A stretch of 64,000 nt of DNA from Chitinophagaceae bacterium (GCA_017495115.1 JAFEIJ010000015.1:3553-67552); one strand, 5' to 3'; shown: positions 13,966-47,952, numbered from the stretch's first letter. Numbers and translations: made by a program. Notes: generated by a model not told the origin, from the sequence alone.

Positions 13966-13973
13966 CAAAGCTA
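13966..13973 (-). promoter_or_regulatory. -7 box TAGCTTTG (glycosyltransferase)
   Basis: CAAAGCTA on the plus strand. 30 nt upstream of ATG 13935. Confidence 0.45.
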
Positions 13974-14044
13974 TATAGATATAAATGAAACAAGGTTGTT
14001 TTTTTATTAAAAAATTTTGTTTTATAATTAAATATTATAAGATA

Positions 14045-15260: not shown

Positions 15261-17144
15261 TTAATATGCCCTACCCGATTTATTTTCTACATAATTGATA
15301 AATGCCGCATTAGCTACTTTATTACCACCAATAGTAGCATAATTTCCACTAAAATACCAATCGCCACGATGCTCAGGACAAGCTTTTTGTAGATTATCTA
15401 AAGGTTGGAACACCAATTCTACTTCAAATGTTATATGTGAAGGAGTTACTAATTGAGCTGCTTTTTTACTTAATTCTTCTTCTGTAAATTGTGCATAAAA
15501 TGTCGTAACTTGATTTTGAATTTCATGACGTGGTTTTTGATTTTCTTCAATGCATTTTTTATAAATTTCTTGAATAAAATCAGATTGACCTCGATCTTTT
15601 AACAACTCAACTGCGGCTCTAAAAATTAATAAATCTCCCATATTACTCATATCAATGCCATAGCAATCAGGATAACGAATTTGGGGCGCCGAAGAAATTA
15701 CAATGAGTTTTTTTGGCTTTAAGCGTCCTAAAATATTAATAATACTTTGCTTCAGCGTAGTGCCTCGTACAATAGAATCATCTAAAATACAAAGTGTATC
15801 CGTATTGGGTTTGATTGAATTGTAAGTGATATCATAAACGTGAGAAACTAAATCATTTCGAGAATTATCGTTTGTTATAAACGTTCTAAGTTTTACATCT
15901 TTTACAATAACTTTTTCAGCTCTAACGCGGTCTTCTACTAATAAATTAATAATTTCGCTTGGCGTAGCATCTTTAAGTCCATTTGTAATTTGACTTCTAT
16001 AAATCTGCTCCAATCCTTTTATCAATCCATAATAAGCGGTTTCAGAAGTATTTGGAATATAACTAAAAACTGTATTTTTAAAATCGCCATTGATTTTTTG
16101 GAAAATAGAAGGCGCCAATAATTTACCCAATTGTTTTCTTTCATTATAAATTTCAGAATCCGTGCCACGAGCAAAATAAATGCGTTCAAAACTACAAGAT
16201 TTCTTTTCTTTTGGTTCCTGAATCATTGTTAGCTGAGGCGCTTTATTATTTTTTAGAATTAAAGCTTGCGCAGGTAATAATTCGACAATATCGGAATAAT
16301 CGACATCAAAAACCGTTTGGATTGCGGGTCTTTCGCTTGCTACTACAGTAAATTCATCACAATGGTAATAAAAACATGGACGAATTCCATTTGGATCTCT
16401 AAAAACAAAAGAATCTCCATGTCCAATAACACCTGTCATAACATAACCTCCATCAAATCCTCTTACGGCCTTACTTAATATTTTTTCAATTTCAAGCTGT
16501 TCCGAAATTAAATTTGAAATCTCTACATTATCTAAACCATCTTTTTTGAACTTTTCAAACATTTCTTGAACTTCGGCATCTAAAAAATGACCAATTTTTT
16601 CAAGAACCAAAACGGTATCCGCTTTTTGTCTCGGATGTTGCCCCAAGCTAATAAGATGCTCTAAAAGCTCATCGACATTCGTTAGATTAAAATTGCCTGC
16701 CAAAACTAAATTACGCGTAATCCAATTTGATTTACGATAAAACGGGTGGCAAATTTTTTCAGATAAATCGCCATGTGTACCATATCTCAAGTGACCTAAA
16801 AAAACATTTCCGAAAACATCACAATGTTGTTTTAGATATGACGCATCTTTCATTTTATCTTCCGGAATCTTATTATATGTTGCGTAACAGTTTTCAAATA
16901 TCTTTTGTAAAGAATTTGATGCTGCACTTCGTTCTCTATAAATAAAATCCGTTCCAATTTCCGTATCTTGTTTGATAACCGCAATTCCAGAACCATCCTG
17001 GCCTCTATTGCGTTGTTTTTCCATCAATAAATACATTTTATCAAGCCCAAAAGAAGGCTTTTGATATTTATCAATATAATATTGAAGCGGCTTATGTAGT
17101 TTTAAAAGAGCAATTCCACATTCGTGTTTGATAGCGTCGGACAT
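15261..17144 (-). CDS. purF: amidophosphoribosyltransferase (long Bacteroidota form)
   Basis: N-terminal HECGI (Ntn Cys), RGQDGSGI, and the PRTase motif LDDSIVRGTT. 627 aa, as in flavobacterial PurF. Confidence 0.9.
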   Translation of the reverse strand: MSDAIKHECGIALLKLHKPLQYYIDKYQKPSFGLDKMYLLMEKQRNRGQDGSGIAVIKQDTEIGTDFIYRERSAASNSLQKIFENCYATYNKIPEDKMKDASYLKQHCDVFGNVFLGHLRYGTHGDLSEKICHPFYRKSNWITRNLVLAGNFNLTNVDELLEHLISLGQHPRQKADTVLVLEKIGHFLDAEVQEMFEKFKKDGLDNVEISNLISEQLEIEKILSKAVRGFDGGYVMTGVIGHGDSFVFRDPNGIRPCFYYHCDEFTVVASERPAIQTVFDVDYSDIVELLPAQALILKNNKAPQLTMIQEPKEKKSCSFERIYFARGTDSEIYNERKQLGKLLAPSIFQKINGDFKNTVFSYIPNTSETAYYGLIKGLEQIYRSQITNGLKDATPSEIINLLVEDRVRAEKVIVKDVKLRTFITNDNSRNDLVSHVYDITYNSIKPNTDTLCILDDSIVRGTTLKQSIINILGRLKPKKLIVISSAPQIRYPDCYGIDMSNMGDLLIFRAAVELLKDRGQSDFIQEIYKKCIEENQKPRHEIQNQVTTFYAQFTEEELSKKAAQLVTPSHITFEVELVFQPLDNLQKACPEHRGDWYFSGNYATIGGNKVANAAFINYVENKSGRAY

Positions 17145-17166
17145 AAAAAAAAATCAAAAATATAAA

Positions 17167-17583
17167 TTAATCAATCGTTGCAATACATTTTAACTCAATT
17201 GAAATCGAGCTTGGCAAAGAAGAAACCTCAACAGTAGTTCTACAAGGCATCGCATCTTTAAAATACTCGGCATATAGTTTATTATAAATATGAAAATCGC
17301 GTTTCATATTTACTAAAAATACAGTTACGTCTACTAAATTTTCCCATTTAGAACCACTTTCTTCTAAAACTGTTTTTACATTTTCAAAAACAGAACGACA
17401 TTGCGCTTCAAAATCAAAAGTGATGTAATTGCCATACTTATCAAGCGTTAAGCCAGGAATTTCATCCGTTCCGGCTTTTCGTGGTCCAATGCCACTTAAA
17501 AATAGTAACTGGCCAACTTTTCTTGAATGTGGATACAAACCTAATGGTTTAGCTGCTTTGTCGGTTAAAAGCGGTGAAGACAT
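17167..17583 (-). CDS. RidA/YjgF family protein
   Basis: 138 aa. LFLSGIGP...VDVTVFL...PCRTTVEV..LP is the YjgF-fold pattern. Confidence 0.8.
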   Translation of the reverse strand: MSSPLLTDKAAKPLGLYPHSRKVGQLLFLSGIGPRKAGTDEIPGLTLDKYGNYITFDFEAQCRSVFENVKTVLEESGSKWENLVDVTVFLVNMKRDFHIYNKLYAEYFKDAMPCRTTVEVSSLPSSISIELKCIATID

Positions 17584-19157: not shown

Positions 19158-20369
19158 CTATTCGTCAGTGCCTTGATCTTCTTCGTGGCTATTAAAGTTA
19201 TCTAGAATGTTAAACATTTCTTTAGCCTTATGATAAACAATTGGATTTAAACGATTGCTTAAAATAATCACACAACTGTTGTCGGACTCTCTTCGATGAA
19301 AAGCAGTTCGATAACCGTGCCACCAACCATTATGATAAATAATTTTTTGCTTATTCTGATCCACTCTCAAACGAAATCCTAGCCCATATTGTTTATTCGA
19401 ACTTGATTCCCACACGTGGTTACTAAAGGCTAAATCTAAAGTCGTTTTTTTCAATAAAACATCAGGATATAACGCTCTATCAAAACGATACATATCTTCT
19501 ATTGTACTATATGCGCCTTTATCGCCAAATACGCCATCGAATTTATCAATAGGATGAATTTGGTTATTCGGGTATAAACCAAAGGTTCTATTTTCCATGT
19601 TCCAAATTTGATCAGGATATGCAAAATAACTATTTTTCATACCCAAAGGTTCAAAAATATACTTCTTGGCATAATCTTGAAAAGACATGCCACTTAATTT
19701 TTCAACCAACAAGCCCAAAAGCATGTAATTAGAATTATTATACTTAAACCTTGCATTTGCATTAAATTCACGTCCTGCTTTTGCCGAACAAAGCGCATTA
19801 TAAGCATCTAAATTGGTATAATACATTACCGAGGCAGGGTAATGCCTTTTATCTAATTTAATGTAATCCGGTATACCACTTCGGTGACTTAACAATTGAC
19901 GAACCGTAACATCGGTATAAGGAAAATCAGGAAAATAGGTAGCAACATAATCATCAAGGCCTAAAATTTCTTGTTCGATTAAAAGCAACGTCGCTACAGC
20001 AGTAATGGTTTTAGAAACTGAAGCCAACTGAAATACAGAGTTGTTCATCAAAGGCTCATTGAGCTGCGGATTGGCTTGTCCAAAAGAATTTTTATAAATT
20101 ACTTGACCGTGCTGTGCAACCAATACGCAACCATTAAATTTATTACTATAGGCTAAATTACGAAAGATGGAATCAATTTTATATTCTTTGATGACAATAT
20201 CCGCAACTTTTTTCTTTAGATTTTCATTTCTATAAAAAAGAAGCTTGTTATGAATTTTTTCAGAAGATTCATTTATATTGGCATAACGATTTATGTTATT
20301 CGTATTAAAACTTGTCGATAAAAATCCAACTAAAGGTATAAAAACAAAAATTTTAAAAAATCGAATCAT
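19158..20369 (-). CDS. serine hydrolase (beta-lactamase/PBP4-like family)
   Basis: SxxK motif in FQLASVSKTITA, and YNNSNY (YxN). Signal peptide MIRFFKIFVFIPLVGFLS. Start taken at ATG 20367-20369 rather than the upstream TTG. Confidence 0.75.
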   Translation of the reverse strand: MIRFFKIFVFIPLVGFLSTSFNTNNINRYANINESSEKIHNKLLFYRNENLKKKVADIVIKEYKIDSIFRNLAYSNKFNGCVLVAQHGQVIYKNSFGQANPQLNEPLMNNSVFQLASVSKTITAVATLLLIEQEILGLDDYVATYFPDFPYTDVTVRQLLSHRSGIPDYIKLDKRHYPASVMYYTNLDAYNALCSAKAGREFNANARFKYNNSNYMLLGLLVEKLSGMSFQDYAKKYIFEPLGMKNSYFAYPDQIWNMENRTFGLYPNNQIHPIDKFDGVFGDKGAYSTIEDMYRFDRALYPDVLLKKTTLDLAFSNHVWESSSNKQYGLGFRLRVDQNKQKIIYHNGWWHGYRTAFHRRESDNSCVIILSNRLNPIVYHKAKEMFNILDNFNSHEEDQGTDE

Positions 20370-20452
20370 AAATGTTATAAACTTAAAGTACAAAATTAAA
20401 TCATTTTTTAAACAAACTCAATTTTACTTTCCACAAAAAAAACACTTTTGAC

Positions 20453-20460
20453 TACTTTTG
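20453..20460 (+). promoter_or_regulatory. -7 box TACTTTTG (DUF2520 gene)
   Basis: 43 nt before ATG 20504. Confidence 0.4.
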
Positions 20461-20503
20461 TAATCAAAACACTTGCAAAAGTAATAAAAAATATTAAAAT
20501 TTT

Positions 20504-21256
20504 ATGAAAATAGTCATTATCGGAGCAGGAAATGTTGCTTTTCATCTTATAAAAAGTATCACAAATTCGGGACATCAATTGGTTCAAATATATAACCGAA
20601 CCATTGAAAACATAAATGAAAGCACAAAAAAAATACCCCTATCCGATTCAATTGGAGGCATTTATCCGAATGCAGATATTTATTTGATTTGCGTAAAAGA
20701 TAATGCCATTGAAGAAATTGCAAATCAATTGAATTTAAAAGATAAATTAGTATTGCACACATCGGGAAATCGAACGATGAATATACTAAAAAATAGCTCA
20801 TCGAATTATGGAATCTTTTACCCAATACAATCATTCACCAAAGAAATTCCTTTAGAATTCAAAAAAGTGCCTATTATTATAGAAGCAAATAGCGCTGAGG
20901 CTTATGAAAAATTAAAATCTTTTGCGGAAAGCATTTCAGAGCGGGTTATTGAAATGAATTTAGAAAAACGCCAGAAATTAAATATAGCAGGAGTTTTTGT
21001 AAATAATTTCACCAATCATATTTATCATTTAATGCATGATTATCTTGACAAAGAATCTATAGATTTTTCAATATTGCATCCAATTATTCAGAATACGGTG
21101 GATAAAATAAAAATTAAAAATCCAAAGACTTGTCAAACCGGCCCCGCAATTCGAAATGACTTCGAAACAATTAACAATCAAAAAAAGATTTTAGAAAATG
21201 AAGAAGATTTATTAAAAATTTACATAGAATTTACTCAAGAAATTATGGAAAAATAA
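20504..21256 (+). CDS. Rossmann-fold / DUF2520 domain protein (ProC-like)
   Basis: N-terminal MKIVIIGAGNVA dinucleotide-binding motif. A C-terminal GPA.R.D motif and a 250-aa size fit the DUF2520 family. Confidence 0.65.
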   Translation: MKIVIIGAGNVAFHLIKSITNSGHQLVQIYNRTIENINESTKKIPLSDSIGGIYPNADIYLICVKDNAIEEIANQLNLKDKLVLHTSGNRTMNILKNSSSNYGIFYPIQSFTKEIPLEFKKVPIIIEANSAEAYEKLKSFAESISERVIEMNLEKRQKLNIAGVFVNNFTNHIYHLMHDYLDKESIDFSILHPIIQNTVDKIKIKNPKTCQTGPAIRNDFETINNQKKILENEEDLLKIYIEFTQEIMEK

Positions 21257-35788: not shown

Positions 35789-38155
35789 ATGACAAAATGG
35801 TCTTCATTAGAAAACTTTATCCATGAGATTGAATTTGATAAAGTTGTAGATATTATTTCGCAATTTTGTAGCCTAGAAAGCGGAATCCAAAAAATTAAAT
35901 CCTCAATCCTTTATACTCAGTTTAATGAGTTGCAAAATGTACATGATATCCATTTTGAATTTGCAAATATTATTCGAAATCAAATGGAATTTGGAAGTCG
36001 AAGAAATGATATTCTGCATTTATTAGAACATGTAGAAGTTGAAAACTTTTATTTAGAAGCTTCTGAAATTTTACAAATAAAAAAAACAATAGAAAATATT
36101 GGAGCCTGTAAAGCTTTTTTTGAAAAAACAGAAAACGCGAATAATTTCCCAAAACTGCACCAATATTTTATCAAAATATTTCACGACAAATCTTTAACGA
36201 ATTTAATTTCAAAACAAATTGACGAAAAAGGAATTGTTAAAGACGATGCATCGCCTAAGTTGCTTGAAATTAGAAACTTACAAAAACGTATTTTTAAAGA
36301 TATCGACCAAGTTTTTAGAAAACAAGTCAGTAGCTATAACGAAATGGGCTTTTTGGCCGAAACCGTAGAAAGTATCCGAAATGGACGACGCGTATTGGCT
36401 GTAAAAGCCGAAAAAAAGAGAAGTATTAAAGGAATCATTCATGATGAATCCGAGTCGGGAAGTATTGTATATATTGAACCCAATGCGCTGATTGAGCTTC
36501 ATAACGATGCGTTAAATATTGAAAATGAAGAAAAAAGAGAAATTATTAGAATTCTTAGGGTACTTACAAATCAAATCGGTACGCATAAAAAGTTACTTTT
36601 AATCTATCAAGAAGCCAATACCAATTTGGATATTTGGAACGCCAAAGCACAATGGGCAATAAAAATGGAATGTAGTCCGGTTGAAATTGCAATACAAAAT
36701 CAAATCAAACTCGTTAAAGCTTTTCATCCATTACTAAAATATAAAAATTCAAACGAAGGTAAAAAAACAATTTCTTTTGATGTAGACTTAAATCAAAATC
36801 AAAAAATGTTGATGATTTCGGGGCCTAACGCCGGAGGAAAATCTATAACGCTCAAATCTATCGGTTTACTCGTTTTGATGCATCAAATGGGCTTTCCCGT
36901 TCCTGTAGAATCTGGAAGCAAATTGCCTTTATTAAAAAAATACTTTTGCGACCTAAGTGATAATCAATCGATTGCAGATGAACTGAGTACGTATTCTTCT
37001 AAAATTGTAAGATGGAAACAAATACTCAATGAAGCTCAATCCGAAACTTTAATTTTAATGGATGAAATGGGTTCGGGAACCGATCCCAGCTTTGGAGCCG
37101 CAGTGGCTCAAGTGATTTTAGAATCTTGTATCGAAAAAAATAGTTTTATTGTTTGCACCACGCATTTTGGTACGCTTAAAAAATGGGCAGATCAAAATAA
37201 AAATATCATCAACGCTTCGATGCTTTTTGATGAAGAAAAATTGGAACCTTTATATATTTTAAAATTAGGAAAACCTGGAAGTAGTTATACCTTTCATATT
37301 GCAAAAAAAATGGGACTTCCTCATGAACTCATCAATAAAGCCGAAAAACTTTCGAATACAAAACAAGTAGAATACGACCGCATGTTGATGAATTTGGAGT
37401 TGAGAGAAAAGGAACTGATGAAACAAAAGGAAGCCTTAGAGCAAAATGAAAATGAAGCAAAAAAACAAATCAAAGATTGGAAAAAGATTTCAAACGAACT
37501 CGATTTATTGAGAAATAAAGTGAAGTTTGAACGTATGGTGTTTTTGAATGAAAAAGAAATTGAAAAACAAAAAATCATTAAAAAATATCACGAAGAATTA
37601 AAGCAAAAAGAGAAAAAAGAAGATTTGAAAACCATTGAAAAGGAAGTGATTAAAACCATTCAATCGAATCAAGAAAAAATAAAAGAAACCTATAAAGAAA
37701 TTCATAAAATACCCGAAAAACAAGAATTTAAACCCGGCGATTTTGTGCAATATATTCAAACCAATGCCATTGGCAAAATAGAAAAGATTGAGAAAAATAA
37801 AGCTATCGTTATTTTTGATCATCTCAAATCAAGTGTACCGATTTCTGATTTGATAAAGCTCAATGCAAATCCTCAAAAAAGTATAAAAGCCAAACAAAAA
37901 ATTGATGTTTCGAACACCAAAATTGATAATGTGTTGGATATTAGAGGCTTATTTTTGTCTGAAGCGATCGAAGAGGTTGAAAAATTTGTAAATGACAGTA
38001 TCATTCAAAATAAATTTCAAGTAAAAATCATTCACGGACGCGGCACGCTTCGCAATGAAATATTGAAATTATTAAATAAAACAAGTGTCATCGAAAAAAT
38101 AGAGTCTGCCAATGCATCCGATGGTGGCGAAGGCGCAAGTTGGATTACGTTTTAG
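35789..38155 (+). CDS. mutS2: endonuclease MutS2
   Basis: 788 aa. Walker A GPNAGGKS, MDE.GSGTDP, a coiled-coil linker, and a C-terminal Smr domain (LDIRG......V.IIHGRGTL). Confidence 0.9.
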   Translation: MTKWSSLENFIHEIEFDKVVDIISQFCSLESGIQKIKSSILYTQFNELQNVHDIHFEFANIIRNQMEFGSRRNDILHLLEHVEVENFYLEASEILQIKKTIENIGACKAFFEKTENANNFPKLHQYFIKIFHDKSLTNLISKQIDEKGIVKDDASPKLLEIRNLQKRIFKDIDQVFRKQVSSYNEMGFLAETVESIRNGRRVLAVKAEKKRSIKGIIHDESESGSIVYIEPNALIELHNDALNIENEEKREIIRILRVLTNQIGTHKKLLLIYQEANTNLDIWNAKAQWAIKMECSPVEIAIQNQIKLVKAFHPLLKYKNSNEGKKTISFDVDLNQNQKMLMISGPNAGGKSITLKSIGLLVLMHQMGFPVPVESGSKLPLLKKYFCDLSDNQSIADELSTYSSKIVRWKQILNEAQSETLILMDEMGSGTDPSFGAAVAQVILESCIEKNSFIVCTTHFGTLKKWADQNKNIINASMLFDEEKLEPLYILKLGKPGSSYTFHIAKKMGLPHELINKAEKLSNTKQVEYDRMLMNLELREKELMKQKEALEQNENEAKKQIKDWKKISNELDLLRNKVKFERMVFLNEKEIEKQKIIKKYHEELKQKEKKEDLKTIEKEVIKTIQSNQEKIKETYKEIHKIPEKQEFKPGDFVQYIQTNAIGKIEKIEKNKAIVIFDHLKSSVPISDLIKLNANPQKSIKAKQKIDVSNTKIDNVLDIRGLFLSEAIEEVEKFVNDSIIQNKFQVKIIHGRGTLRNEILKLLNKTSVIEKIESANASDGGEGASWITF

Positions 38156-38445
38156 GAATTTAAATCCATCGTTTTATTTTTTTGTTTAATAGCAATGATA
38201 AGAAAATTTATTGATTTTTTTTTGGATATTTTTATTTCCATCTATTCTCAGGCTGTGGGTTGCATAGACTTAATAAGGTAAAATGAATACGAATGGTTCG
38301 AAGCACTAATTATCAAAGATAAATATATTAAAAATACGAAATAATGGAATATAGCTATACCCTATGTAAATACTCTAAAAATGTTAATTATTTATAAAAA
38401 TTTTAATATTTGTAAAAATTATTTTATAATTGCATATATTAACGA

Positions 38446-38454
38446 GTTAGCGGT
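38446..38454 (+). repeat. GTTAGCGGT half-site, exact reverse complement of the ACCGCTAAC start of elements A and C
   Basis: 67 nt upstream of the GmrSD-like ATG. It pairs conceptually with 40361-40369. Confidence 0.5.
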
Positions 38455-38521
38455 CATTTTAGGAGAACCACACAAATCCAACAAACGACAAGTCTACAAA
38501 AAACAAAAGACAGTAAAAAAT

Positions 38522-40351
38522 ATGGCAAAAAACATTGAACCAACTCTGAAATTAATAAGCAAATTCCTTAAACTCGACAAATCCGAAAACTTTGTAATTC
38601 CTGAATATCAGCGTGGTTACTCTTGGGACATAGCTCAATGTGATAAATTATGGCAAGATATTGAAGCGTTTATTGCTTCTAACGCAAGCGATCCGTATTT
38701 TTTCGGTACAATCATTGTAGATTGTTCAGAAACTCACAAATTCAGCTTAATTGACGGACAACAACGCACAACGACTTTTTTGTTATTACTTAAAGCTTTG
38801 TTAATACAATTAAATGAAGCGATTCCAAAAGTTTCTGACGATGAGGAATCAGAAGCACTTAAAGCAGGACTAAAAGCCAACAGAAATAAAATTATGGCGA
38901 TTTTGTATAAAGCAGAAGATGAAGACATTCCTTCAATGCTAAAAGATTATGCTAAAACGCAAAACATTTTGATAATAGAAAATAAATCAATAAACGAATT
39001 ATTTCCAAATGAAGTAAAAACAATTATTGAAGCCGCAGACTTCATTTCATCTGAACAGAACGTCTATAAAATTCCACGAAAACAAAAAGACAATAAATAC
39101 ACAAATCACTTTCGCAACTTCAAATATTTTTTTAGCAAATTAGGCGAAAAGCCAGAATCTCAACTAAACCAATTTGCGAAAATATTTTTGGAGAAATGCC
39201 AAGTTATTGAAATTCGCAGTTGGCAAATTGAGCAAGCGATTACTATGTTTAATTCGCTAAACTCTACTGGTATGCCACTTTCTGATGCCGACATAATTTC
39301 TGCACAACTATACTCAAATGCTGGGGATGACAAAAAGGTGTTTAATGACCAATGGGAAAGTATCAATAAATTAGCAAATGAACTAAGTAACCGAAAAATC
39401 ATAGATATTGATGCTGTTTTGCAACAATTTATGTATATCAACCGTGCCATTAACAAGGAATATATAAGTATAAACAAAGAAGGAAATGAATCAGTTGATG
39501 TAACAACACCAGGTTTAAGAAGATATTATACTGACATTAAAAAAGAATTATTGAATGAACCATTGATGTTGTGTAATGACTTAGCTAAAATCACAACTAT
39601 TTGGAACAACATTAAAGATTATCCGACCGTAAAATTGCTTTTAAAATGTAACGAAAATGCTAAGTTATTTTTGTCAGCATATTTACATCGTTACGAAATC
39701 ACAGAAATCACAGAAGAAATTATTTTAGACTTGTGTGAGTGTTTACTAAGATTATTTACAATTTTAGAATTGAGTGATGCTGGTTATTCAAGTTCTAAAT
39801 TTAAGACGTTTTTGTTTGGTGAGAACATTAAATTAGTTGACAAAAATGTTTCAATTGACACTATCAAAAATAATTTCAATGAACATATTTCAAACAATTG
39901 GAAAGAAGACACAATTTCAGATGCAATTATTGAATATGATAAAAATTTACTTGTTTTTATTAACGAATATCTTTACTCTAAAACCAAAGGAACAAAGTTT
40001 GACTTTACAGAAAATGTAAACATTGAACATATAATGCCTTCAAGTGGTCGCAATATAACGACAATACAACAAGACGCAAATATTGCTACCAAAGAAGAGT
40101 TTAATAGTGTAGTAAACAAACTTGGAAACAAAATATTACTTGAAGAAGACATAAATAAGTCAATTGGACGAGAATGGTTCAAGACAAAAAAGCAAAATTC
40201 AATTGATAACAAATCTGGTTTCAAGGATAGTAAATATAGTATTGCTTTGGCATTAACATCATATCCAAAAGAAACTTGGACAAAAGACGATATTGACACT
40301 GCAACATTAAAAGCTACAGAACGAATAGTGGAATTTATATTTAACAAATAG
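38522..40351 (+). CDS. GmrSD-like DUF262 / DUF1524 domain protein (putative modification-dependent or NTP-dependent nuclease)
   Basis: N-terminal FVIPEYQRGYSW and IDGQQRTTT (DUF262, ParB-like NTPase). C-terminal NIEHIMP...NKLGNKILLEEDINKS (DUF1524 His-Me finger). ATG 38522 (MAKNIEP) is preferred to the ORF-track start 38381, whose extension is low-complexity. Confidence 0.8.
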   Translation: MAKNIEPTLKLISKFLKLDKSENFVIPEYQRGYSWDIAQCDKLWQDIEAFIASNASDPYFFGTIIVDCSETHKFSLIDGQQRTTTFLLLLKALLIQLNEAIPKVSDDEESEALKAGLKANRNKIMAILYKAEDEDIPSMLKDYAKTQNILIIENKSINELFPNEVKTIIEAADFISSEQNVYKIPRKQKDNKYTNHFRNFKYFFSKLGEKPESQLNQFAKIFLEKCQVIEIRSWQIEQAITMFNSLNSTGMPLSDADIISAQLYSNAGDDKKVFNDQWESINKLANELSNRKIIDIDAVLQQFMYINRAINKEYISINKEGNESVDVTTPGLRRYYTDIKKELLNEPLMLCNDLAKITTIWNNIKDYPTVKLLLKCNENAKLFLSAYLHRYEITEITEEIILDLCECLLRLFTILELSDAGYSSSKFKTFLFGENIKLVDKNVSIDTIKNNFNEHISNNWKEDTISDAIIEYDKNLLVFINEYLYSKTKGTKFDFTENVNIEHIMPSSGRNITTIQQDANIATKEEFNSVVNKLGNKILLEEDINKSIGREWFKTKKQNSIDNKSGFKDSKYSIALALTSYPKETWTKDDIDTATLKATERIVEFIFNK

Positions 40352-40460
40352 AAACACCGAACCGCTAACAGCAGTTTGGCATAATGGCGGGTTCAGTGCT
40401 AAATTGAAAGTAAGTGCTTCTAAATCCGCCACTTCTCCAAGCTGCAAAACGGTTGGCGGT
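40352..40460 (+). repeat. element A: 109-nt GC-rich imperfect palindrome (attC-like) after the GmrSD-like gene
   Basis: Three stem segments read by hand: ACCGCTAAC (40361-69) / GTTGGCGGT (40452-60); GCAGTTTGG (40371-79) / CCAAGCTGC (40437-45); TGGCGG (40385-90) / CCGCCA (40426-31). There is a 6-nt one-sided bulge AAAACG. It starts 1 nt after the stop codon. Confidence 0.75.
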
Positions 40461-40491
40461 AATGCTAAATAACATTGTGTAAAAATAAACT

Positions 40492-42009
40492 ATGGCAAAA
40501 AAGAAAAGCAGGATTAGACAAACTAGAACAAGTTTTCAGAAAGTTTTCGATAATTATCCTGATATGATACGACCATTTTCTTGGTCAGATAGATTGCCTG
40601 AATTTTTACATATATCTATTGCTCTAATAGATAATGACTATGAGGTTGTTAAGGAAGATTTTCATAAGATTGCAGACCTAGTAAATGGGAAATTTCATTA
40701 CGATAGAAAGTTTCATTTTAATCTTTCACATACTTTAAAATTAATTGTAGAAGATAATAGCATTCTAGACGAAATATTAAAAACATCATTTAAAACTGCA
40801 TTTCAACAAATAATTTTATTCTATAATAATTTGTTTCGTGATTTATTAAATTTAAAGGTGAATATTAATAGTGAGCCAGATCGTCGGAATATTTTTTTAG
40901 GATATAAATCAATACTAAATGGTAGATCTGATACATCAATATTATGCAAATACATGATGTTGCAATATACACAAACTGGTAATCCAGATCCATTTAATTT
41001 ATTCAACTGGGATACCACAGAAATCATACTTAACAAATTGAATGTTTCCAAAGTTATGTCTGCTTTTTCTCCATCTATTGGACTTTCAGAATATTTAGAT
41101 TTAGAACTTTGTGAAAACATATGGTTATATAATTATTACCTCTCTCCTCCTATGCCAAAACCTGATGATACTACGATTGAAGAACTACATTATAAAGAAT
41201 TAAAAATGAAGGAATTCACAGATAATTTTATTGATTTATTTGCGGAAATAAAAAAAATTAATCTTTTAGAATTTTATACCCCTTTTATAGCAGAAGTCAA
41301 TATGGGATTCATCGCTAGGATAGGCAATTTAACTATAGATACTGTCGACCTAGTAAAAATTCATAAAGGAGAAATTGCAGAAATGGTATTTAGAGTAACA
41401 TTAGAAACATTTATTGTTGGTTCATGGTTATTAACAAAACAGGACATAGAATTACATAAAAGATTTAGAGATTTTAGTACTGGGAGACAACGATTTTTTG
41501 GTGAGCAAGTTCTTCAAAAAGCGACAAGTGATAGAATGAAAAATGAGGCGAAAAGTATTATTGATGATGCTATAGAAGATTCTGGCAGAAGACACATTGA
41601 CGTTGCTACTGAGAAAGGAGATGTTTTTGACATAAATATAATGCAAATGTCCAACGAAGTATGGGGTGAAGAAAATATCTATTATTTTTTATACAAAAGG
41701 TCATCAGAAGTTACACATGGTCGATGGGAAATAATCGCAAAATATCATTTAGCAAAAAGCTACAATCCAACACACAATGGATTATATTTTTACAATGAAA
41801 ATCCTAACCGATTTGCTGGACTAATTCCAGCGTTCGGAAGTCTTATTTTAGCTACTGATTTTTTGATTAGAATAATTAATGATATCAATGACGAAAGATA
41901 TAATGAACTTACTGAAAAATTAAATAACTATTATTATAGATTATATGAGCAATATATGGTTTACTATAATGATTATGTATTAAACGATAATAAAAATAAA
42001 GCAGAATAA
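40492..42009 (+). CDS. hypothetical protein, family unknown; C-terminal half HEPN-like (DUF5677/AbiV-like?)
   Basis: 505-aa ORF with a clean ATG and no overlap. The only motifs I can point to are FRVTLE (R301..E305) and YKRSSEVTH (R403-x5-H409), which together resemble the helix-1 R..E and Rx4-6H signatures of HEPN-type Abi proteins. Nothing is recognised in the N-terminal 250 aa. Confidence 0.6.
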   Translation: MAKKKSRIRQTRTSFQKVFDNYPDMIRPFSWSDRLPEFLHISIALIDNDYEVVKEDFHKIADLVNGKFHYDRKFHFNLSHTLKLIVEDNSILDEILKTSFKTAFQQIILFYNNLFRDLLNLKVNINSEPDRRNIFLGYKSILNGRSDTSILCKYMMLQYTQTGNPDPFNLFNWDTTEIILNKLNVSKVMSAFSPSIGLSEYLDLELCENIWLYNYYLSPPMPKPDDTTIEELHYKELKMKEFTDNFIDLFAEIKKINLLEFYTPFIAEVNMGFIARIGNLTIDTVDLVKIHKGEIAEMVFRVTLETFIVGSWLLTKQDIELHKRFRDFSTGRQRFFGEQVLQKATSDRMKNEAKSIIDDAIEDSGRRHIDVATEKGDVFDINIMQMSNEVWGEENIYYFLYKRSSEVTHGRWEIIAKYHLAKSYNPTHNGLYFYNENPNRFAGLIPAFGSLILATDFLIRIINDINDERYNELTEKLNNYYYRLYEQYMVYYNDYVLNDNKNKAE

Positions 42010-42010
42010 A

Positions 42011-42180
42011 AGCACTAAAGCACTACCTCCAACACAGGTTTTGCAAGATTGCGACTTCTGGACTTAATTTGAAGTTGGTTTTGTATCTTTGAATTCAGTG
42101 TTTAACCGAAAGGTTCGGTTTCATTAGTCCGCAACCTCGCAAAGCCTGGGGACGTATAGCGAACCGCAGAAACCGACCGA
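42011..42180 (+). repeat. element B: divergent member of the same family after the 505-aa gene
   Basis: It shares ..CCAACAcaGGTTTTGCAAgA...CTTAATTtGAAG with elements A and C. Segmented stem 42035-42064 / 42126-42148 (CAGG/CCTG, TTTTGC/GCAAAG, TTGC/GCAA, GGACT/AGTCC). Inner perfect hairpin AACCGAA-AGG-TTCGGTT (42104-42120). Confidence 0.6.
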
Positions 42181-42210
42181 AAATTCAGCAAAAAAAAGAA
42201 ATTAAAATCG

Positions 42211-42235
42211 TAAATTTGCGACTTATATAAATTTG
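42211..42235 (+). promoter_or_regulatory. two tandem -7-like boxes TAAATTTG (42211-42218 and 42228-42235) upstream of the methyltransferase gene
   Basis: Both match TAnnTTTG. The proximal box is 12 nt before ATG 42248. They lie just after repeat element B. Confidence 0.5.
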
Positions 42236-42247
42236 ACAATTTAAAGA

Positions 42248-44404
42248 ATGAATTTAATAGATACGGGAATAGAAAAAGGACTAATTTGTTTTGACGAAGA
42301 CAAGAACTTTATCACTTACATACACCAAAATAAGAAAAGGAATTACAACAATCCCGAAGAAAAAGTACAAGCTGAAACTTTTTTGACTTTGGTGCTTATT
42401 TACGGCTACCCTGTAAACAGAATTAAACAATTTCTTTCTGTTCAAATGGGTTCAGAAACGAAAGAAGCCGACATTGCAGTTTATTCAGACGATGATTGCC
42501 ACGACACTTATATTTTAGTAGAGTGCAAAAAAGAAGATTTAACCGACCAACAATTTAACATAGCTGTTGACCAAGCATACAGTTATGCAGTTGCAGAAGG
42601 TGCAAAATATGTTTGGACAACTTCACGAATTAAAAACCAGTATTACGAAGTACCCGACAAGAAGCCAAAAAGCAGAATTGAAATTCCAGATATTCCACAA
42701 TTTGGAATTGACAAATTGGCGAAATACAAATATGTAAAAGGCGGTATTTCTCAAACTGACACAGATGCAAAACCAACCAATATTGTAAGTGAACCCGACC
42801 CAAATGTAACGCAGAAATTTTTTGAGTTGCAAGTGGTTAGCGAAAGCGAACTAACAAAAATATTTATCCAATCACACCAAGCACTTTGGGGCGGTGGTCA
42901 ACGAAACCCAAGTGTTGCATTTGACGAATTAGATAAACTCATTTTTTGTAAAATTTGGGATGAAAAACACCCAAGAAAAAACGGAGAACCCTATGATTTT
43001 CAAATTTTTAGAGACGAAGACCCCGAAGATTTATTAGACAGAGTAAAGAAAATTTATGCAGTTGGCGAAAAAGAAGCACCCGAAGTTTTCAAAGACGGTA
43101 TTACACTTACAGCACAAGAAACGCTGACGATTGTAAAATATTTTCAACGGATAAACCTTAATAAAACTGACCTTGACAGCAAAGGAAAAGCCTTTGAAAC
43201 CTTTATGGGCAGTTATTTTCGTGGCGACTTTGGACAATATTTCACACCAAGACCAATCGTAAAATTTATAGTTGACAGTTTGCCCATTACCCACAAAGCA
43301 AGGGTTTTAGATACCAGTTGTGGTAGCGGTGGTTTTTTGCTTTACGCATTAGACAAAGTAAGAGAGCAAGCCAACGAATTTTACGATATTAAAACCGAAC
43401 CAGTGGAGCATAAAGCACATTGGCATAACTTTGCCGAAAAAAATCTTTTTGGCATTGAAATAAACGACCAAATAGCCCGAACTGCCAAAATGAATATGAT
43501 TATTCACGATGACGGACACACCAATGTAATTGCTTCTGATGGACTTTTGAGTGATGTAGAAATGCAAGTAAAATCGGGTAACAAAGAATTTAAGTACAAT
43601 TCGTTTGACTACATAATTACCAATCCACCTTTTGGCAGTAGCATAAAACAAACCGAAAAAGCCTATTTGCACCAATACAATTTGGGTAAAAAAGACGAAG
43701 ATTGGTTGGCTGTAAAAGCACTTAAAGAAACTACAAGAGATAGCCAAAGTACCGAAGTATTATTTTTGGAGCAATGTCATAAGTTTTTGGTAGAGTTTGG
43801 AATGATGGCTGTGGTAATACCTGACGGAATTTTAACTAATAGCAGTTTGCAATATGTACGAGACAATTTGGAAGAAATGTACCGTATTGTAGCCGTTGTA
43901 TCTATGCCACAAACAGCCTTTAGTGCCACAGGTGCAGGTGTAAAAAGTTCGGTTTTGTTTTTGCGTAAACATAAAACCAAACAAACCGAAAAAATAAGCA
44001 ACCAAAAAGCCAAACTAAAATTAGACGTAAAAACCGACAATAAATATATTGCAACGGTAGAAAAATGGGATAAGGAAAAAGCACAAGCCATAAAAAAATT
44101 GGAAGACGAAGCCAAAACCAAAAACCCAAAGGCAACAAAAAAAGAAATTACAGAAATGATACAAGCCGACAAGTCGGCTGTACAATCTGCATTTACCGAC
44201 AAAGTAAATTTGTTTAAAGAAGAACTAACCGAAAAGTATTTTCTTGCCAAGCAAACTGCCCTTGACGATTACCCTATATTTATGGCAATAGCCGAAGATA
44301 TTGGTTACGATGCCACAGGTAGAAACACCAATAATAATGAACTAATAGAAATAGGTAAAGAACTACAAAAGTTTATTGCTCATATAAACAAGACCGAAAA
44401 GTAA
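42248..44404 (+). CDS. hsdM: N6-adenine DNA methyltransferase (HsdM/gamma-class) with an N-terminal HSDR_N-like PD-(D/E)xK domain
   Basis: Motif I is LDTSCGSGGFL and motif IV is ITNPPFGS. The N-terminal ~135 aa carry EAD(75)IAVY...YILVE(92)CK(94), a PD-(D/E)xK-like pattern as in the type I R-protein N-terminal domain. A Lys-rich coiled-coil insert lies near the C-terminus. It ends 1 nt before hsdS. Confidence 0.85.
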   Translation: MNLIDTGIEKGLICFDEDKNFITYIHQNKKRNYNNPEEKVQAETFLTLVLIYGYPVNRIKQFLSVQMGSETKEADIAVYSDDDCHDTYILVECKKEDLTDQQFNIAVDQAYSYAVAEGAKYVWTTSRIKNQYYEVPDKKPKSRIEIPDIPQFGIDKLAKYKYVKGGISQTDTDAKPTNIVSEPDPNVTQKFFELQVVSESELTKIFIQSHQALWGGGQRNPSVAFDELDKLIFCKIWDEKHPRKNGEPYDFQIFRDEDPEDLLDRVKKIYAVGEKEAPEVFKDGITLTAQETLTIVKYFQRINLNKTDLDSKGKAFETFMGSYFRGDFGQYFTPRPIVKFIVDSLPITHKARVLDTSCGSGGFLLYALDKVREQANEFYDIKTEPVEHKAHWHNFAEKNLFGIEINDQIARTAKMNMIIHDDGHTNVIASDGLLSDVEMQVKSGNKEFKYNSFDYIITNPPFGSSIKQTEKAYLHQYNLGKKDEDWLAVKALKETTRDSQSTEVLFLEQCHKFLVEFGMMAVVIPDGILTNSSLQYVRDNLEEMYRIVAVVSMPQTAFSATGAGVKSSVLFLRKHKTKQTEKISNQKAKLKLDVKTDNKYIATVEKWDKEKAQAIKKLEDEAKTKNPKATKKEITEMIQADKSAVQSAFTDKVNLFKEELTEKYFLAKQTALDDYPIFMAIAEDIGYDATGRNTNNNELIEIGKELQKFIAHINKTEK

Positions 44405-44405
44405 T

Positions 44406-45851
44406 ATGAGCAGTTACACAATTTCTAACCCAGCACTCAACCCAAAACGAGTTTTTATTTTGCAAAAAAGCGAATTGGAAAAACGATGGGACTCATACTT
44501 TTATTTGCCACAATTCAAAATCTTAGAAGATAAATTAAAGAAAAAAAATGTAAAGTGTATTTCACAAATAGCTGAAAGAGTGTTTTCAGGTTCTACCCCT
44601 TTAAGTAAAGGAGATTCATATACTGAAGACAAGATAAATGGTATACCGTTTGTAAGAAGTGGCGACTTTACAATTGAAGGCTCAATTGATTTTAATAATT
44701 TAGTATATTTAAAATCAGAAATTCATACAACACAATTAAAATCTTCTCAACTAAAAGAAAATGATTTACTTTTTGCAATTGTTGGTGCTACAATTGGGAA
44801 AGTAGGAGTTTATAAAAGTGATAGACCTGCAAATATCAATCAAGCAATTTGTGCAGTAAGAATAAAATCAAATTATAATATTGATTATCTAAACGCATAC
44901 TTTCAAACGAAATTAGGTCAAAGTCTAATTGACAGAATTAAAAGACCAGTAGCAAGAGCAAATGTAAATCTTGACGAAATTTCCACATTACCTATAATTT
45001 TACCAGATGAGGTTATACAGCAAAAAGTAATTTCTATATTCAATAGTTCATTATCCCAAAAACAAACCAACGAAGCCGAAGCCGAAAAACTATTGGCAAG
45101 TATTGATGATTATTTATTAGGCGAGTTGGGTATTACTTTGCCGACACCACCCGAAAATACGTTGAAGAGTAGGATGTTTATTGCAAACAGTAAAGACATT
45201 TTGGGAAGTAGATTTGACCCACATTTTAATAAAACTTTCTACAATGAAGTTTTCAATTCCTTTTCAAAAAGCAAATTCAAGGTTTTAAAAATTAAAGATG
45301 TTTTAGAAAACATCAAAACAGGAACAACACCAAATCAAAAGTTAGAACCTTATGCAGACGAAAACGGAATTGTATTTTTAAGAAACACTAATCTTAAAAA
45401 ATACAACATTGATTTATCCGACACAAAATTTATAAAAACTGAGTTAGCAAAAGAATTGACATATTCAGTAAAAGACGAAGTAATTATGTGTATTGCAGGA
45501 ACAGTCGGACTTTCAGCAGTAAATAAAATAGATAAGCCATTTTCAATCAATCAAAATGTTTCGGCATTAAAGTTTTTTGACAATCATATAAACCCTGACT
45601 TCGCTTCATATTGGTTTAATACGGATATTTTTCTAGAACTAACAAAAAGGGCTTGTTCTGTGGCGACAATTTTTTATTTAAATAACGACAATTTAAAACT
45701 TTTACCAATCCCTGTTCCACCCATTAACAAACAAAAAGAAATAGCCGAGCATATAACCAATATAAGAAACCAAGCCCAAGCACTAAAAGACCAAACCAAA
45801 GACTTGCTCAAAAAAGCTAGTGAAGAAATAGAAGAAATATTACTAGACTAA
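44406..45851 (+). CDS. hsdS: restriction-modification specificity subunit (HsdS, two target-recognition domains)
   Basis: 481 aa. Duplicated TRD architecture with two conserved helical spacers (NEAEAEKLLASIDDYLLGELGI and IRNQAQALKDQTKDLLKKASEEIEEILL). Translationally coupled to the methyltransferase. Confidence 0.85.
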   Translation: MSSYTISNPALNPKRVFILQKSELEKRWDSYFYLPQFKILEDKLKKKNVKCISQIAERVFSGSTPLSKGDSYTEDKINGIPFVRSGDFTIEGSIDFNNLVYLKSEIHTTQLKSSQLKENDLLFAIVGATIGKVGVYKSDRPANINQAICAVRIKSNYNIDYLNAYFQTKLGQSLIDRIKRPVARANVNLDEISTLPIILPDEVIQQKVISIFNSSLSQKQTNEAEAEKLLASIDDYLLGELGITLPTPPENTLKSRMFIANSKDILGSRFDPHFNKTFYNEVFNSFSKSKFKVLKIKDVLENIKTGTTPNQKLEPYADENGIVFLRNTNLKKYNIDLSDTKFIKTELAKELTYSVKDEVIMCIAGTVGLSAVNKIDKPFSINQNVSALKFFDNHINPDFASYWFNTDIFLELTKRACSVATIFYLNNDNLKLLPIPVPPINKQKEIAEHITNIRNQAQALKDQTKDLLKKASEEIEEILLD

Positions 45852-45873
45852 ATAGACAAACGACACGAAGAAA

Positions 45874-46014
45874 AAACACCGAACCGCTAACAGCCGTTTT
45901 GCAAAAGCTGGGGTTTAGTGCTTAATTGAAGCTTTGTGCTTCGAATCAAGTTCAGTGCTGGCAGACAGTTTTGTGCTTCGAAAACCGCTTCTTCGCCAAG
46001 CGCCGAAACGTTAT
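45874..46014 (+). repeat. element C: ~140-nt member of the same family after hsdS
   Basis: Its first 21 nt, AAACACCGAACCGCTAACAGC (45874-45894), are identical to 40352-40372. The central unit GTTyAGTGCT..TTTGTGCTTCGAA is duplicated (TTTGTGCTTCGAA at 45933-45945 and 45970-45982). It ends ...CCGAAACGTTAT. Confidence 0.75.
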
Positions 46015-46022
46015 TTGCTCTA

Positions 46023-46057
46023 CTCGTCCTCGTCTTAGCGAAGTGATGACGAGGATG
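46023..46057 (+). repeat. GC-rich hairpin element D2 (inverted copy of D1)
   Basis: CTCGTCCTCGTCTTAGCGAAGTGATGACGAGGATG, with stem TCCTCGTC/GACGAGGA. It directly abuts element C. Confidence 0.7.
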
Positions 46058-46139
46058 CATAAGTGTGAAATGAAATTTAAAGGATTAAATTAAAAGTTTT
46101 TTATTTCATAAACATATTTATTGCATTTTCAAAAACTTA

Positions 46140-46541
46140 CTATTTCTTTTTCTTCAGTTGATTCCATCTTAAGCTAACGCCTACTCCAATATTCCATTGA
46201 CCATTTTGTGTTGCCGTTTTTGGGTTATAATACAAAGGAATTTGAAATGCTACGGCACGATACGAATAGGTGAGTCCAATGCCTAAAGTTGGCGTTACAA
46301 AAGCATTTTTTGTAGTTCCTTGATCTTCTTTAAAACGAAGTGAAGGCAACATACTTAACATTACTTTGGAGTCATTTAAATTAGCGGTTATGCTTGGTCC
46401 TGCAAAATTTAAATATCCACCTTGATTCACATAACCAACAACTAAAACACCATCGAAGGGTAATAAATTGATTTTAGTATCTTGAGCATATAGCCAAGAA
46501 CTAACTATTAATAGAAAAACGGTAAAATATTGTTTTTTCAT
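46140..46541 (-). CDS. small secreted / outer-membrane beta-strand protein (hypothetical)
   Basis: Signal peptide MKKQYFTVFLLIVSSWLYAQ. Alternating hydrophobic pattern. A CAAAAATA box lies 14 nt upstream. Confidence 0.45.
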   Translation of the reverse strand: MKKQYFTVFLLIVSSWLYAQDTKINLLPFDGVLVVGYVNQGGYLNFAGPSITANLNDSKVMLSMLPSLRFKEDQGTTKNAFVTPTLGIGLTYSYRAVAFQIPLYYNPKTATQNGQWNIGVGVSLRWNQLKKKK

Positions 46542-46555
46542 TTTTAAATTTTCAT

Positions 46556-46563
46556 CAAAAATA
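46556..46563 (-). promoter_or_regulatory. -7 box TATTTTTG (small OMP gene)
   Basis: CAAAAATA on the plus strand. 14 nt upstream of ATG 46541. Confidence 0.5.
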
Positions 46564-46654
46564 ATTCGTTTTTACAAATAAACTAAAATTTGTTAATTTT
46601 TTGATTAAAAATTTGCGTTATCTACATTAACATATTTAATAACAAAAAAAATAA

Positions 46655-46680: not shown

Positions 46681-47952
46681 ATGATTCCAATTCATAAAAT
46701 TAAGCAAAATCAAGAAGCCGTAATCGAAGCATTAACGAAGAAACATTTTAAAGATATTTCATTAATTGATACCTTAATTGAAAAAGATGAAGCGCGTAAA
46801 AATGTTCAAAAAAAATTAGATGATGTTTTATTTGAAGTCAATTCCATTTCGAAAGAAGTTGGAAATTTATTTAAACAAGGAAAAGCCGAAGAAGCCGAAG
46901 TTTTAAAAAACAAATCTTCTGAACTAAAATCGACCACGGAAAATCTTTCTCAATCTTTAAAAAGTATTGAAAATGAAATTCATGACATTCATATTCAATT
47001 CCCTAATATTCCACACGAGAGTGTACCTAAAGGTAAAACCGCGGAAGATAATACGACAGTAAGAAGCTGGGGTACACGACCTATTTTAGCAAAAAATGCG
47101 GTTCCACATTGGGATTTAGCTTCAAAATATGATTTATTTGATTTAGATTTAGGTTCTAAACTTACAGGTGCGGGATTCCCGGTATTTAAAGGAAAGGGTG
47201 CCAAATTACAAAGAGCGTTGGCTCAGTTTTTTTTAGATGAAAATACGGCCGCAGGTTACCAAGAAATTATTCCTCCTTTGATGGTTAATGAAGCGTCTGC
47301 TTATGCTACAGGGCAATTGCCCGACAAAGAAGGTCAAATGTATATCATCAATGAAGAGCGACCTTTTTATATGATTCCTACCGCGGAGGTCCCTGTAACC
47401 AATATTTATCGTGATAAAGTGTTGTCATTGCAAGATTTACCTGTTAAACTTACCGCATTTTCGCAATGTTTCCGAAGAGAAGCAGGAAGTTATGGAAAAG
47501 ATGTACGAGGATTAAACCGAGTACATCAGTTTGATAAAGTGGAAATTGTACAATTAGTAAACCCTGAAAACTCATACCAAATTTTAGAAGAAATGACGGC
47601 TCATGTTGAGGGAATTTTACAAAAATTAGGTTTAGAATATCGCGTATTACTTTTATGTGGCGGGGACATGAGTTTTGCATCCGCTAAAACGTATGATTTA
47701 GAAGTGTATAGTGCCGCGCAAGAAAAATGGCTTGAAGTCAGTTCGGTTTCTAATTTTGAAGATTTTCAGACCAATCGATTAAAAGCAAGATATAAAGACG
47801 AGGAAGGAAAAACAAAACTTTGTCATTCTTTAAATGGTAGTGCCTTGGCTTTACCTCGTATTTATGCCGCTATTTTAGAAAATTATCAGACGGAAGATGG
47901 TATCAAAATTCCAGATGTTTTAGTTCCTTACACTGGATTTAATAAAATATAA
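46681..47952 (+). CDS. serS: serine--tRNA ligase
   Basis: N-terminal coiled-coil arm. Class II motifs FRRE.GS.G.D.RGL.RVHQF.KVE and GSALA.PR. Confidence 0.95.
   Translation: MIPIHKIKQNQEAVIEALTKKHFKDISLIDTLIEKDEARKNVQKKLDDVLFEVNSISKEVGNLFKQGKAEEAEVLKNKSSELKSTTENLSQSLKSIENEIHDIHIQFPNIPHESVPKGKTAEDNTTVRSWGTRPILAKNAVPHWDLASKYDLFDLDLGSKLTGAGFPVFKGKGAKLQRALAQFFLDENTAAGYQEIIPPLMVNEASAYATGQLPDKEGQMYIINEERPFYMIPTAEVPVTNIYRDKVLSLQDLPVKLTAFSQCFRREAGSYGKDVRGLNRVHQFDKVEIVQLVNPENSYQILEEMTAHVEGILQKLGLEYRVLLLCGGDMSFASAKTYDLEVYSAAQEKWLEVSSVSNFEDFQTNRLKARYKDEEGKTKLCHSLNGSALALPRIYAAILENYQTEDGIKIPDVLVPYTGFNKI

Follow-up and report, generated by a model that had tools for sequence, protein, structure and literature searches.

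Between mutS2 and serS in a Chitinophagaceae bacterium, four co-oriented genes of predicted restriction and defence families interrupt a housekeeping stretch, and no HsdR subunit is found with them. Do these genes form one anti-phage system that works without HsdR, or are they separate modules that were brought together, and if so, by what means? The DNA in question is a stretch of 64,000 nucleotides (GCA_017495115.1 JAFEIJ010000015.1:3553-67552), referred to here as the window; all positions are counted from its first letter. The first-pass annotation described the four genes as an HsdR-less islet at 38446-46057 and suggested a composite system. The layout is confirmed, with all four open reading frames (ORFs) on the plus strand. 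The region is, however, quite probably a three-cassette array of independent defence modules, built by integron-like site-specific recombination of Bacteroidota. The genes and the recombination sites proposed for them are as follows (RM, restriction-modification; TRD, target recognition domain).

38522-40351, plus strand: cassette 1 gene, GmrSD-like, 609 aa, with Pfam domains GmrSD_N and GmrSD_C
40492-42009, plus strand: cassette 2 gene, DUF5677 (PF18928), 505 aa
42248-44404, plus strand: first gene of cassette 3, RM fusion, 718 aa, with HSDR_N_2 at aa 36-150 and N6_Mtase at aa 310-622
44406-45851, plus strand: second gene of cassette 3, HsdS, 481 aa, Methylase_S with two TRD stretches
38446-38453, plus strand: left boundary of cassette 1, GTT followed by AGCGG, with no palindromic site upstream
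40360-40461, plus strand: attC-like site 1, 102 nt, AAC at 40367 and GTT at 40452 (nhmmer 7.8e-25; DNA fold z = -2.1)
42024-42163, plus strand: attC-like site 2, AAC at 42031 and GTA at 42154 (nhmmer 1.3e-27)
45882-46019, plus strand: attC-like site 3 and end of the array, 138-nt modal form, AAC at 45889 and GTT at 46010 (nhmmer 1.4e-33)

A related imperfect palindrome of 102-140 nt stands behind each of genes 1, 2 and 4, and elements of this kind are absent from the rest of the window. The stop codons of the GmrSD-like and HsdS genes both precede a 72-nt direct repeat; over 72 nt, the 5' half of site 3 is 81% identical to site 1. Alignment revealed the third related element after the DUF5677 gene. 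Rfam gave only a chance lncRNA match in the region. An exact 16-mer of the flanking repeat is absent from the first 109 loci, and relatives of the sites were found by profile search. The methyltransferase gene had been singled out for its high G+C content. It is indeed high (0.357, against a mean of 0.308 for the other ORFs), but it stays within their range (standard deviation 0.03, maximum 0.357). The clearly G+C-rich pieces of the region are the three intergenic elements, at 0.43-0.47.

In the common layout of the sites, YYAAC-A is followed by a bulged stem of 17 bp, a central stretch of about 74 nt, the return arm, and an A-rich spacer that leads to GTT. Most are 137-140 nt long between fixed end points, and a second class of about 200 nt has an extra central hairpin. 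Compensatory double changes are present in 16 of the 17 stem pairs, and pairing holds in 91.5% of cells. The score for covariation, 0.57, is reached by none of 500 shuffles, which give 0.18, and sliding the partner columns leaves 0.10 or less. The centre (74 nt; for example, 45914-45987 in the window) is weakly periodic at 18-19 nt and at 37 nt, and GTGC-like motifs recur in it every 18.5 nt or so. This periodicity is statistical only, and Tandem Repeats Finder called no repeats in the site centres. The 36 nt missing from site 1 correspond to about two of the central units of about 18.5 nt. These units may be protein-binding units.

No site departs from AAC and GTT, whereas the nucleotides that flank them on the outside find a partner within their own element in only about half of cases. 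Such weak outer pairing is what would be predicted for integrons, where recombination at G|TT gives each R' tail to the next cassette. In 84 of 113 cases, the five nucleotides before AAC of a site are instead perfectly complementary to the five that follow GTT in the site before it. Excluding the loci used for model building, the count is 72 of 97, and among the first 21 sites it is 11 of 16 consecutive pairs. Controls are far lower: 8 of 180 with the site's own GTT, and 2.7% for all-against-all comparison. Outer pairing of this kind between neighbouring sites is a hallmark of the circular cassettes of integrons.

This hallmark can be followed in the window. CCGCT before AAC of site 1 is the perfect complement of AGCGG after GTT at the left boundary. 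The site behind the DUF5677 gene, CCTCC-AAC, is complementary at four of five positions to the preceding GTT-GGCGG. For the site behind the HsdS gene, complementarity to the preceding core requires that an inserted A be tolerated (GTATAGCG). Besides, the DUF5677 cassette is homologous in DNA to Flavobacterium bomense from precisely the G of GTT onward in both genomes (window 40452; F. bomense 9960).

These breakpoints bear on another explanation, that the palindromes are ordinary extragenic repeats, miniature inverted-repeat transposable elements, or 3'-untranslated-region or terminator structures, and that the islet came in by homologous recombination or with another mobile element. Stable hairpins right behind stop codons fit it, as do the lack of an integrase in the window and flanks conserved enough for homologous replacement. 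However, an RNA or terminator role predicts no 5-nt pairing between sites (84 of 113 against 4%) and no gene homology starting exactly at the G of GTT. It also predicts no specific recombinase with a matching GTT at array heads, as described below, and the elements have no T-run. This explanation is very unlikely. Homologous replacement of the whole array at this locus is compatible with its being a cassette array.

In such a cassette array, each cassette would extend from the TT of one GTT core to the G of the next and end in an attC-like imperfect palindrome of about 138 nt. Cassette 1 (38447-40452) would then carry the GmrSD-type nuclease, and cassette 2 (40453-42154) the DUF5677 protein. 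Cassette 3 (42155-46010) would carry the RM polypeptide, a nuclease with an N6-methyladenine (m6A) methyltransferase, together with the HsdS-like subunit that would read a bipartite site. The sites would act as folded single strands. The left boundary at 38446-38453 is read as a putative secondary-site or attI-like junction, because no palindromic site is present upstream. The preceding 38231-38445 (about 214 bp) has a G+C content of 0.22 and gives no nhmmer match to the sites. Because its core is mutated, site 2 may keep cassettes 2 and 3 locked to each other.

According to a profile of the three window sites, the same element is present in other loci of Bacteroidota. There it directly follows ORFs, always lies on their coding strand, and often recurs several times in a row. 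Locus L007 contains at least 10 sites in 16 kb. One narrow pattern of the 5' arm is seen in at least 120 species genomes, nearly all Bacteroidota among the matches listed. The 301 profile matches from all loci are fully co-oriented in 56 of 57 multi-site loci. They delimit 147 cassettes with a median length of 1094 bp, in which 192 ORFs of at least 80 aa lie on the strand of the sites and 10 on the opposite strand. The cargo is very diverse, with 112 Pfam families among 146 ORFs; C5 and N6 methyltransferases, SacI, GmrSD_N, AbiEii-like ATPases, ParE, NOV_C, and HEPN are found in it, as are transporters and redox enzymes.

What would move these cassettes? Of 120 loci, 18 contain a tyrosine recombinase of about 350 aa (Phage_int_SAM_4 and Phage_integrase). 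When its position relative to the array can be told, it mostly heads the array and usually has the same orientation as the cassettes. No integrase was found within 10 kb of the arrays in L007 or L049. The reverse comparison, starting from three Flavobacterium recombinase genes, gives an array immediately downstream on the same strand in all three cases, with 1, 5, and at least 10 sites. In these three loci, a GTT lies about 110 nt past the recombinase stop codon, and the next five nucleotides match R'' of the first site at five of five positions. This Xer-like recombinase, which heads such arrays elsewhere, would catalyse cassette exchange.

For the window itself, the earlier reading that nothing resembles an integrase or a transposase stands in its first part. 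A profile of the array-associated recombinases, run against the window in all frames, has no match at E<=10; transposases were not exhaustively searched for. No tRNA genes were found within the window. The window array would thus be the equivalent of a cluster of attC sites lacking integron-integrases (CALIN), with the recombinase absent from the 64 kb. It may have arrived through insertion at a secondary site or through homologous exchange of the flanking DNA.

Three further observations concern the recombinase and its neighbourhood. Upstream of the recombinase, two Flavobacterium species (L231 and L232) share genes for an extracytoplasmic function (ECF) sigma factor, FecR, and a TonB-dependent receptor. 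As these upstream neighbours are common to the two species, a sedentary, chromosomal recombinase platform is suggested in Flavobacterium. Genes for group II intron reverse transcriptases (RVT_1 and GIIM) are found in or beside arrays (L232:14422-15612 and 20101-21044; L020:6626-7855 and 13913-15142), and those of L232 are on the opposite strand, just after a site. These array-borne genes are reminiscent of group IIC introns, which target attC sites in classical integrons. In L020, two recombinases of 263 aa (11156-13091 and 15877-17521; 267 bits to the array family) are paired with IS91/Y2 transposases. Since these relatives accompany such transposases, the recombinase family serves other elements too.

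The likeness to integrons and CALINs is broad. It covers co-oriented cassettes ending in imperfect palindromes, AAC...GTT cores, structure-preserving covariation, and a G|TT crossover pattern in which R'' of one site pairs with R' of the preceding one. In other genomes it extends to a tyrosine recombinase with an adjacent putative insertion site at the array head, and to diverse cargo rich in defence, toxin-antitoxin, and RM genes. Genes bounded by sites of the Xer family are also known from the dif/pdif modules of Acinetobacter plasmids. Those modules have paired 28-bp XerC/D sites and no co-oriented arrays, unlike the long folded palindromes with AAC/GTT cores seen here.

Could the locus then be a plain classical IntI/attC cassette array, a CALIN already detectable by standard tools? 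Integrons are matched in architecture, in the AAC/GTT cores and bulged stem of the sites, in strand bias, and in the diversity of the cargo, and the recombinase scores just under the cutoff of the NCBI XerA/integron-integrase model (218.5 against 220). Its score for TIGR02249 is 200.8 against 265. It aligns end to end with archaeal XerA, while its alignment with VchIntIA breaks at the IntI-specific insertion, where 61 residues (IntI4 residues 184-244) are matched by 18 here. In public sources it is named only XerD or site-specific integrase. The sites also differ from those of classical integrons in their unusually fixed length of 138 nt, or about 200 nt, and in the four weakly periodic central units. 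Unlike integron integrases, the recombinase lacks the IntI additional domain and is mostly co-oriented with the cassettes. Reviews count Bacteroidota among the phyla with integrons detected. IntegronFinder surveys of Bacteroidetes, however, reported first only In0 elements (isolated integrases) and then one complete integron, in Salinibacter. Yet one narrow pattern finds the present arrays in at least 120 species genomes. A plain classical array is unlikely.

The first-pass annotation proposed one composite system, in which the GmrSD-like protein and/or the 505-aa protein add cleavage or abortive function to an HsdR-less core. Across 104 loci (24 of DUF5677 and 80 of RM homologues), the three modules are not found together. 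No methyltransferase or HsdS homologue lies within 10 kb of the DUF5677 homologues, and the 80 RM loci contain no GmrSD or DUF5677 homologue. The sole loose exception is a Zobellia locus, in which 3 kb and a transposase separate a GmrSD gene from the DUF5677 gene. The genes are thus unlinked in other genomes, which counts against the composite reading. The four genes are co-oriented and tightly packed, and a third gene of about 500 aa stands beside or inside the RM-S pair in 16 of the 80 loci, so that partnerships of this kind are conceivable. The methyltransferase also weakly resembles MAD2 (285 bits against a cutoff of 720) of the multi-gene methylation-associated defence system (MADS). Nevertheless, the composite reading is not supported: recombination sites lie between the genes and would divide them into three separately mobile cassettes. 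Moreover, the RM-S pair has its own conserved nuclease motif, its solved homologue cuts without a partner, and the MADS-defining mad6-8 are absent. A composite system is highly improbable.

The absence of HsdR is explained by the RM-S pair of cassette 3, which follows a known translocase-free architecture. The absence itself is upheld for the window: no helicase or ResIII domain is found among the ten longest other ORFs (459-2202 aa), a check that covered all other ORFs of at least 514 aa plus one of 459 aa and left shorter ORFs unscanned. The earlier assignment of gene 3 to an m6A methyltransferase with an N-terminal PD-(D/E)xK-like domain agrees with the HSDR_N_2 and N6_Mtase matches. Likewise, the two-TRD HsdS is borne out by its two Methylase_S stretches, by PADLOC (Specificity_I, 5.4e-42), and by PDB 1yf2 (2.7e-23). 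The HsdS ORF begins 1 nt past the RM stop codon.

The best PDB match of the RM subunit is RM.BsaXI (8w0p; phmmer E 1.5e-31, 113 bits, aa 75-693), with an alignment that spans the nuclease domain through the methyltransferase. D75, E92, K94, and NPPF of the RM subunit are invariant in 65 relatives of 57-99% identity, and E92 and K94 align to E105 and K107 of BsaXI, which are catalytic. BsaXI belongs to type IIB, consists of an RM fusion plus an S subunit of 476 aa, and needs no translocase (PMC11997821). The fused nuclease domain, which had been named as one possible source of cleavage, is therefore its likely supplier, with RM.BsaXI as the closest solved relative. The RM and S proteins likely make up a self-sufficient type IIB-like RM enzyme of the BcgI/BsaXI design, for which double-sided cutting is not readable from sequence.

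The window pair shares with BsaXI and BcgI the fusion of an N-terminal PD-(D/E)xK domain to a gamma-class m6A methyltransferase with E-x-K kept, a separate two-TRD S protein of about 480 aa, the lack of a translocase, and single-chain RMS variants in the family. Unlike in BsaXI, where RM has 916 aa, the window RM has 718 aa, and the C-terminal part of BsaXI with the paddle residues D816 and E823 has no matched counterpart. PADLOC classes the window RM under type I methyltransferases, which differs from a type IIB assignment. A classical type I RM system was considered and rejected, since no HsdR/SF2 helicase is found among the ten longest other ORFs and none is conserved beside RM-S in the 80 loci. 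MADS (mad1-8) was also considered and rejected. The methyltransferase is MAD2-like and the S subunit MAD5-like, whereas the scores are far under the equivalog cutoffs (for MAD5, 94 against 400), and mad6, mad7, and mad8 are missing at the locus. These three genes are mandatory in the MacSyFinder rule for MADS.

Relatives of the RM subunit are present in at least 558 species genomes of many phyla, and 80 of their loci were examined. In nearly all of these, across many phyla, an HsdS homologue is directly downstream of the RM gene. No conserved helicase adjoins RM-S among the 80 loci, and HsdR never follows. Three cyanobacterial loci encode RM and S as one ORF of about 1190 aa: two of Microcystis (L081:10001-13558 and L082:10001-13573) and one of an uncultured cyanobacterium (L066:4083-7649). 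These fusions mirror the single-chain RMS type IIB enzymes. The genes inserted between RM and S are RhuM (7 loci), Bro-N (5), and the IS200 transposase (4), for example at L032:12163-13164, L038:5003-5845, and L033:12169-12627; apart from the protein described next, no other extra gene recurs.

In 16 of the 80 loci, a protein of about 500 aa without a Pfam family is encoded after HsdS or between RM and HsdS. It has a DGNHR motif, which we take to resemble the ParB/DGQHR type. The protein could be a third component of that RM-S subfamily. Its loci are:

L087:5995-7497
L064, L070, L077, L079, L080, L083, L088, L091, L093, L094, L097, L100, and L102-L104

The protein identity of the RM subunit is 75-99% across orders of Bacteroidota and metagenome-assembled genomes (MAGs) labelled Ignavibacteria, Nitrospirae, and Deltaproteobacteria (L025-L061), and HsdS, in contrast, is variable. 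Because such identity spans distant lineages, frequent horizontal transfer of the RM subunit is indicated.

The gene of cassette 1 was annotated as a DUF262/DUF1524 nuclease of the GmrSD type, and both domains are recovered above the Pfam cutoffs (GmrSD_N 8.5e-36; GmrSD_C 1.3e-10). Its motifs are DGQQR at aa 78, EHIMP at aa 502, and GNKILL at aa 535. PADLOC assigns it to HEC-06 (6.5e-41), its PDB relatives are the DUF262 protein 9jfl and SspE, and no NCBIfam equivalog matched. The product is predicted to be a GmrSD-like type IV (modification-dependent) restriction endonuclease that would cut modified phage DNA. As with all enzymatic and anti-phage activities of the cassette products, we infer this from family membership and motifs. 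It shares with the GmrSD/BrxU/SspE family both Pfam domains, DGQQR, and the C-terminal nuclease motifs, and HEC-06 is a stand-alone PADLOC candidate. It differs in travelling as a cassette and in having no NCBIfam equivalog. A longer reading of this ORF, with 656 aa from 38381, was considered and is unlikely; the cassette boundary at 38446 falls within that extension.

The 505-aa protein of cassette 2 had been described as belonging to no recognised family. It is in fact catalogued as DUF5677 (PF18928; 3.6e-12, 47.1 bits against a gathering threshold of 27.1). A search of PADLOC, NCBIfam, and PDB by sequence profile gives no match. The AlphaFold2 model is all-alpha, with a predicted local distance difference test (pLDDT) score of 85, and Foldseek finds nothing significant for it in PDB or BFVD. 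There are 79 full-length homologues, mostly in Bacteroidota. In the 24 loci, the neighbours are integrases, insertion sequences, the toxin systems RES-Xre and PemK, and AbiTii/putAbiC, with a NOV_C nuclease in several. Our best guess is a stand-alone defence or abortive-infection effector, in view of the Abi, toxin-antitoxin, and nuclease genes that surround its relatives. A DUF5677 gene is paired with a gene of the NOV_C nuclease family (423 aa) in several genomes (L003:9989-12825, L020:8001-10840, and L021), and the pair in L003 lies within one cassette. This hints at a two-gene module of DUF5677 and NOV_C, of which the window would hold the first gene only.

How the array is placed in the chromosome can be seen from relatives. 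The features around the cassettes are listed below.

35789-38155: mutS2, left flank
38231-46625: strain-specific segment, with blastn breakpoints at 38230/38231 and 46625/46626
46140-46541, minus strand: ORF of 133 aa, secreted or outer-membrane-like, in the strain-specific segment and outside the cassettes
46681-47952: serS, right flank

Both flanks are 96-98% identical to the window in L105, a Chitinophagales MAG from Lake Mendota, and in the metagenome contig L230. At the same breakpoints, these two carry 2.7 kb of other, unrelated genes and none of the attC-like sites. The array at mutS2-serS is therefore strain-specific, because unrelated genes stand between nearly identical flanks. Comparing the mutS2-serS junction, as the earlier reading had proposed for defining the insertion, delimits it to 38231-46625 in the window, and the view of a strain-variable anti-phage gene stretch within a housekeeping region is supported by both relatives. 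The alternative allele (L105:12567-15052, and in L230 too) encodes an outer-membrane-like protein of 303 aa and a lipoprotein-like protein of 516 aa. A metagenome scan for other alleles at mutS2-serS gave one contig, L230, which is of the L105 type. The 133-aa ORF has a signal-peptide-like start and is missing in L105 and L230.

Several facts weigh against reading the region as an array of defence cassettes moved by this recombinase. The 3' core of site 2 is degenerate, with GTATAGCG in place of GTTAGCG (a GTAT core), and site 1 is a short form, 36 nt under the modal 138 nt. The left boundary has neither a palindromic site nor a recognisable attI, and with no integrase either, the window array differs from a complete integron. 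No recombinase is present within 64 kb, so that any activity at this locus is putative. Elsewhere, the recombinase is without the insertion that classical integron integrases need, and the evidence for its role is its linkage to arrays. Sites are seen in only 6 of the 80 RM loci and 8 of the 24 DUF5677 loci. Since few of their loci have sites, RM and DUF5677 genes also travel by other routes. As for the cargo, double-sided cutting, the hallmark of type IIB enzymes, cannot be inferred from sequence, and the protective genes of an assay in Enterococcus faecalis did not include the DUF5677 ORF tested there (PMC12632615).

Defence systems are known in integron cassettes (bioRxiv 10.1101/2024.07.02.601686), from the chromosomal integrons of Vibrio and from mobile integrons. 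The arrays described here occur in Bacteroidota, a phylum with hardly any integrons in surveys. No published description of these sites and this recombinase as a cassette system was found, in a literature coverage that is incomplete and by which novelty is unproven. It is about an even question whether they represent an undescribed, widespread counterpart of integrons in Bacteroidota. Such a counterpart would consist of an Xer-like recombinase lacking the IntI domain, a GTT insertion site beside it, and arrays of 138-nt attC-like sites with a periodic centre, and would stockpile and exchange defence and accessory cassettes. The window genes are members of known families; the integron-like carrier, with its Xer-like recombinase and distinctive sites, is the interesting part.

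For the genes themselves, the puzzle of a missing HsdR dissolves if the RM-S pair is a type IIB-like enzyme. This pair is very common and is routinely mislabelled as a "type I M subunit". The cassette arrays offer a simple route to mine new defence genes, such as DUF5677. If the sites work as their patterns indicate, Bacteroidota, including Flavobacterium, Chitinophagales, Cytophagales, and Bacteroidales, own a cassette-capture platform. With the sites and the recombinase now defined, both the scarcity of integrons in the phylum and recombination of folded sites without the IntI-specific domain become testable. An undescribed counterpart in Bacteroidota, if true, would account for the near-absence of integrons in surveys of this phylum.

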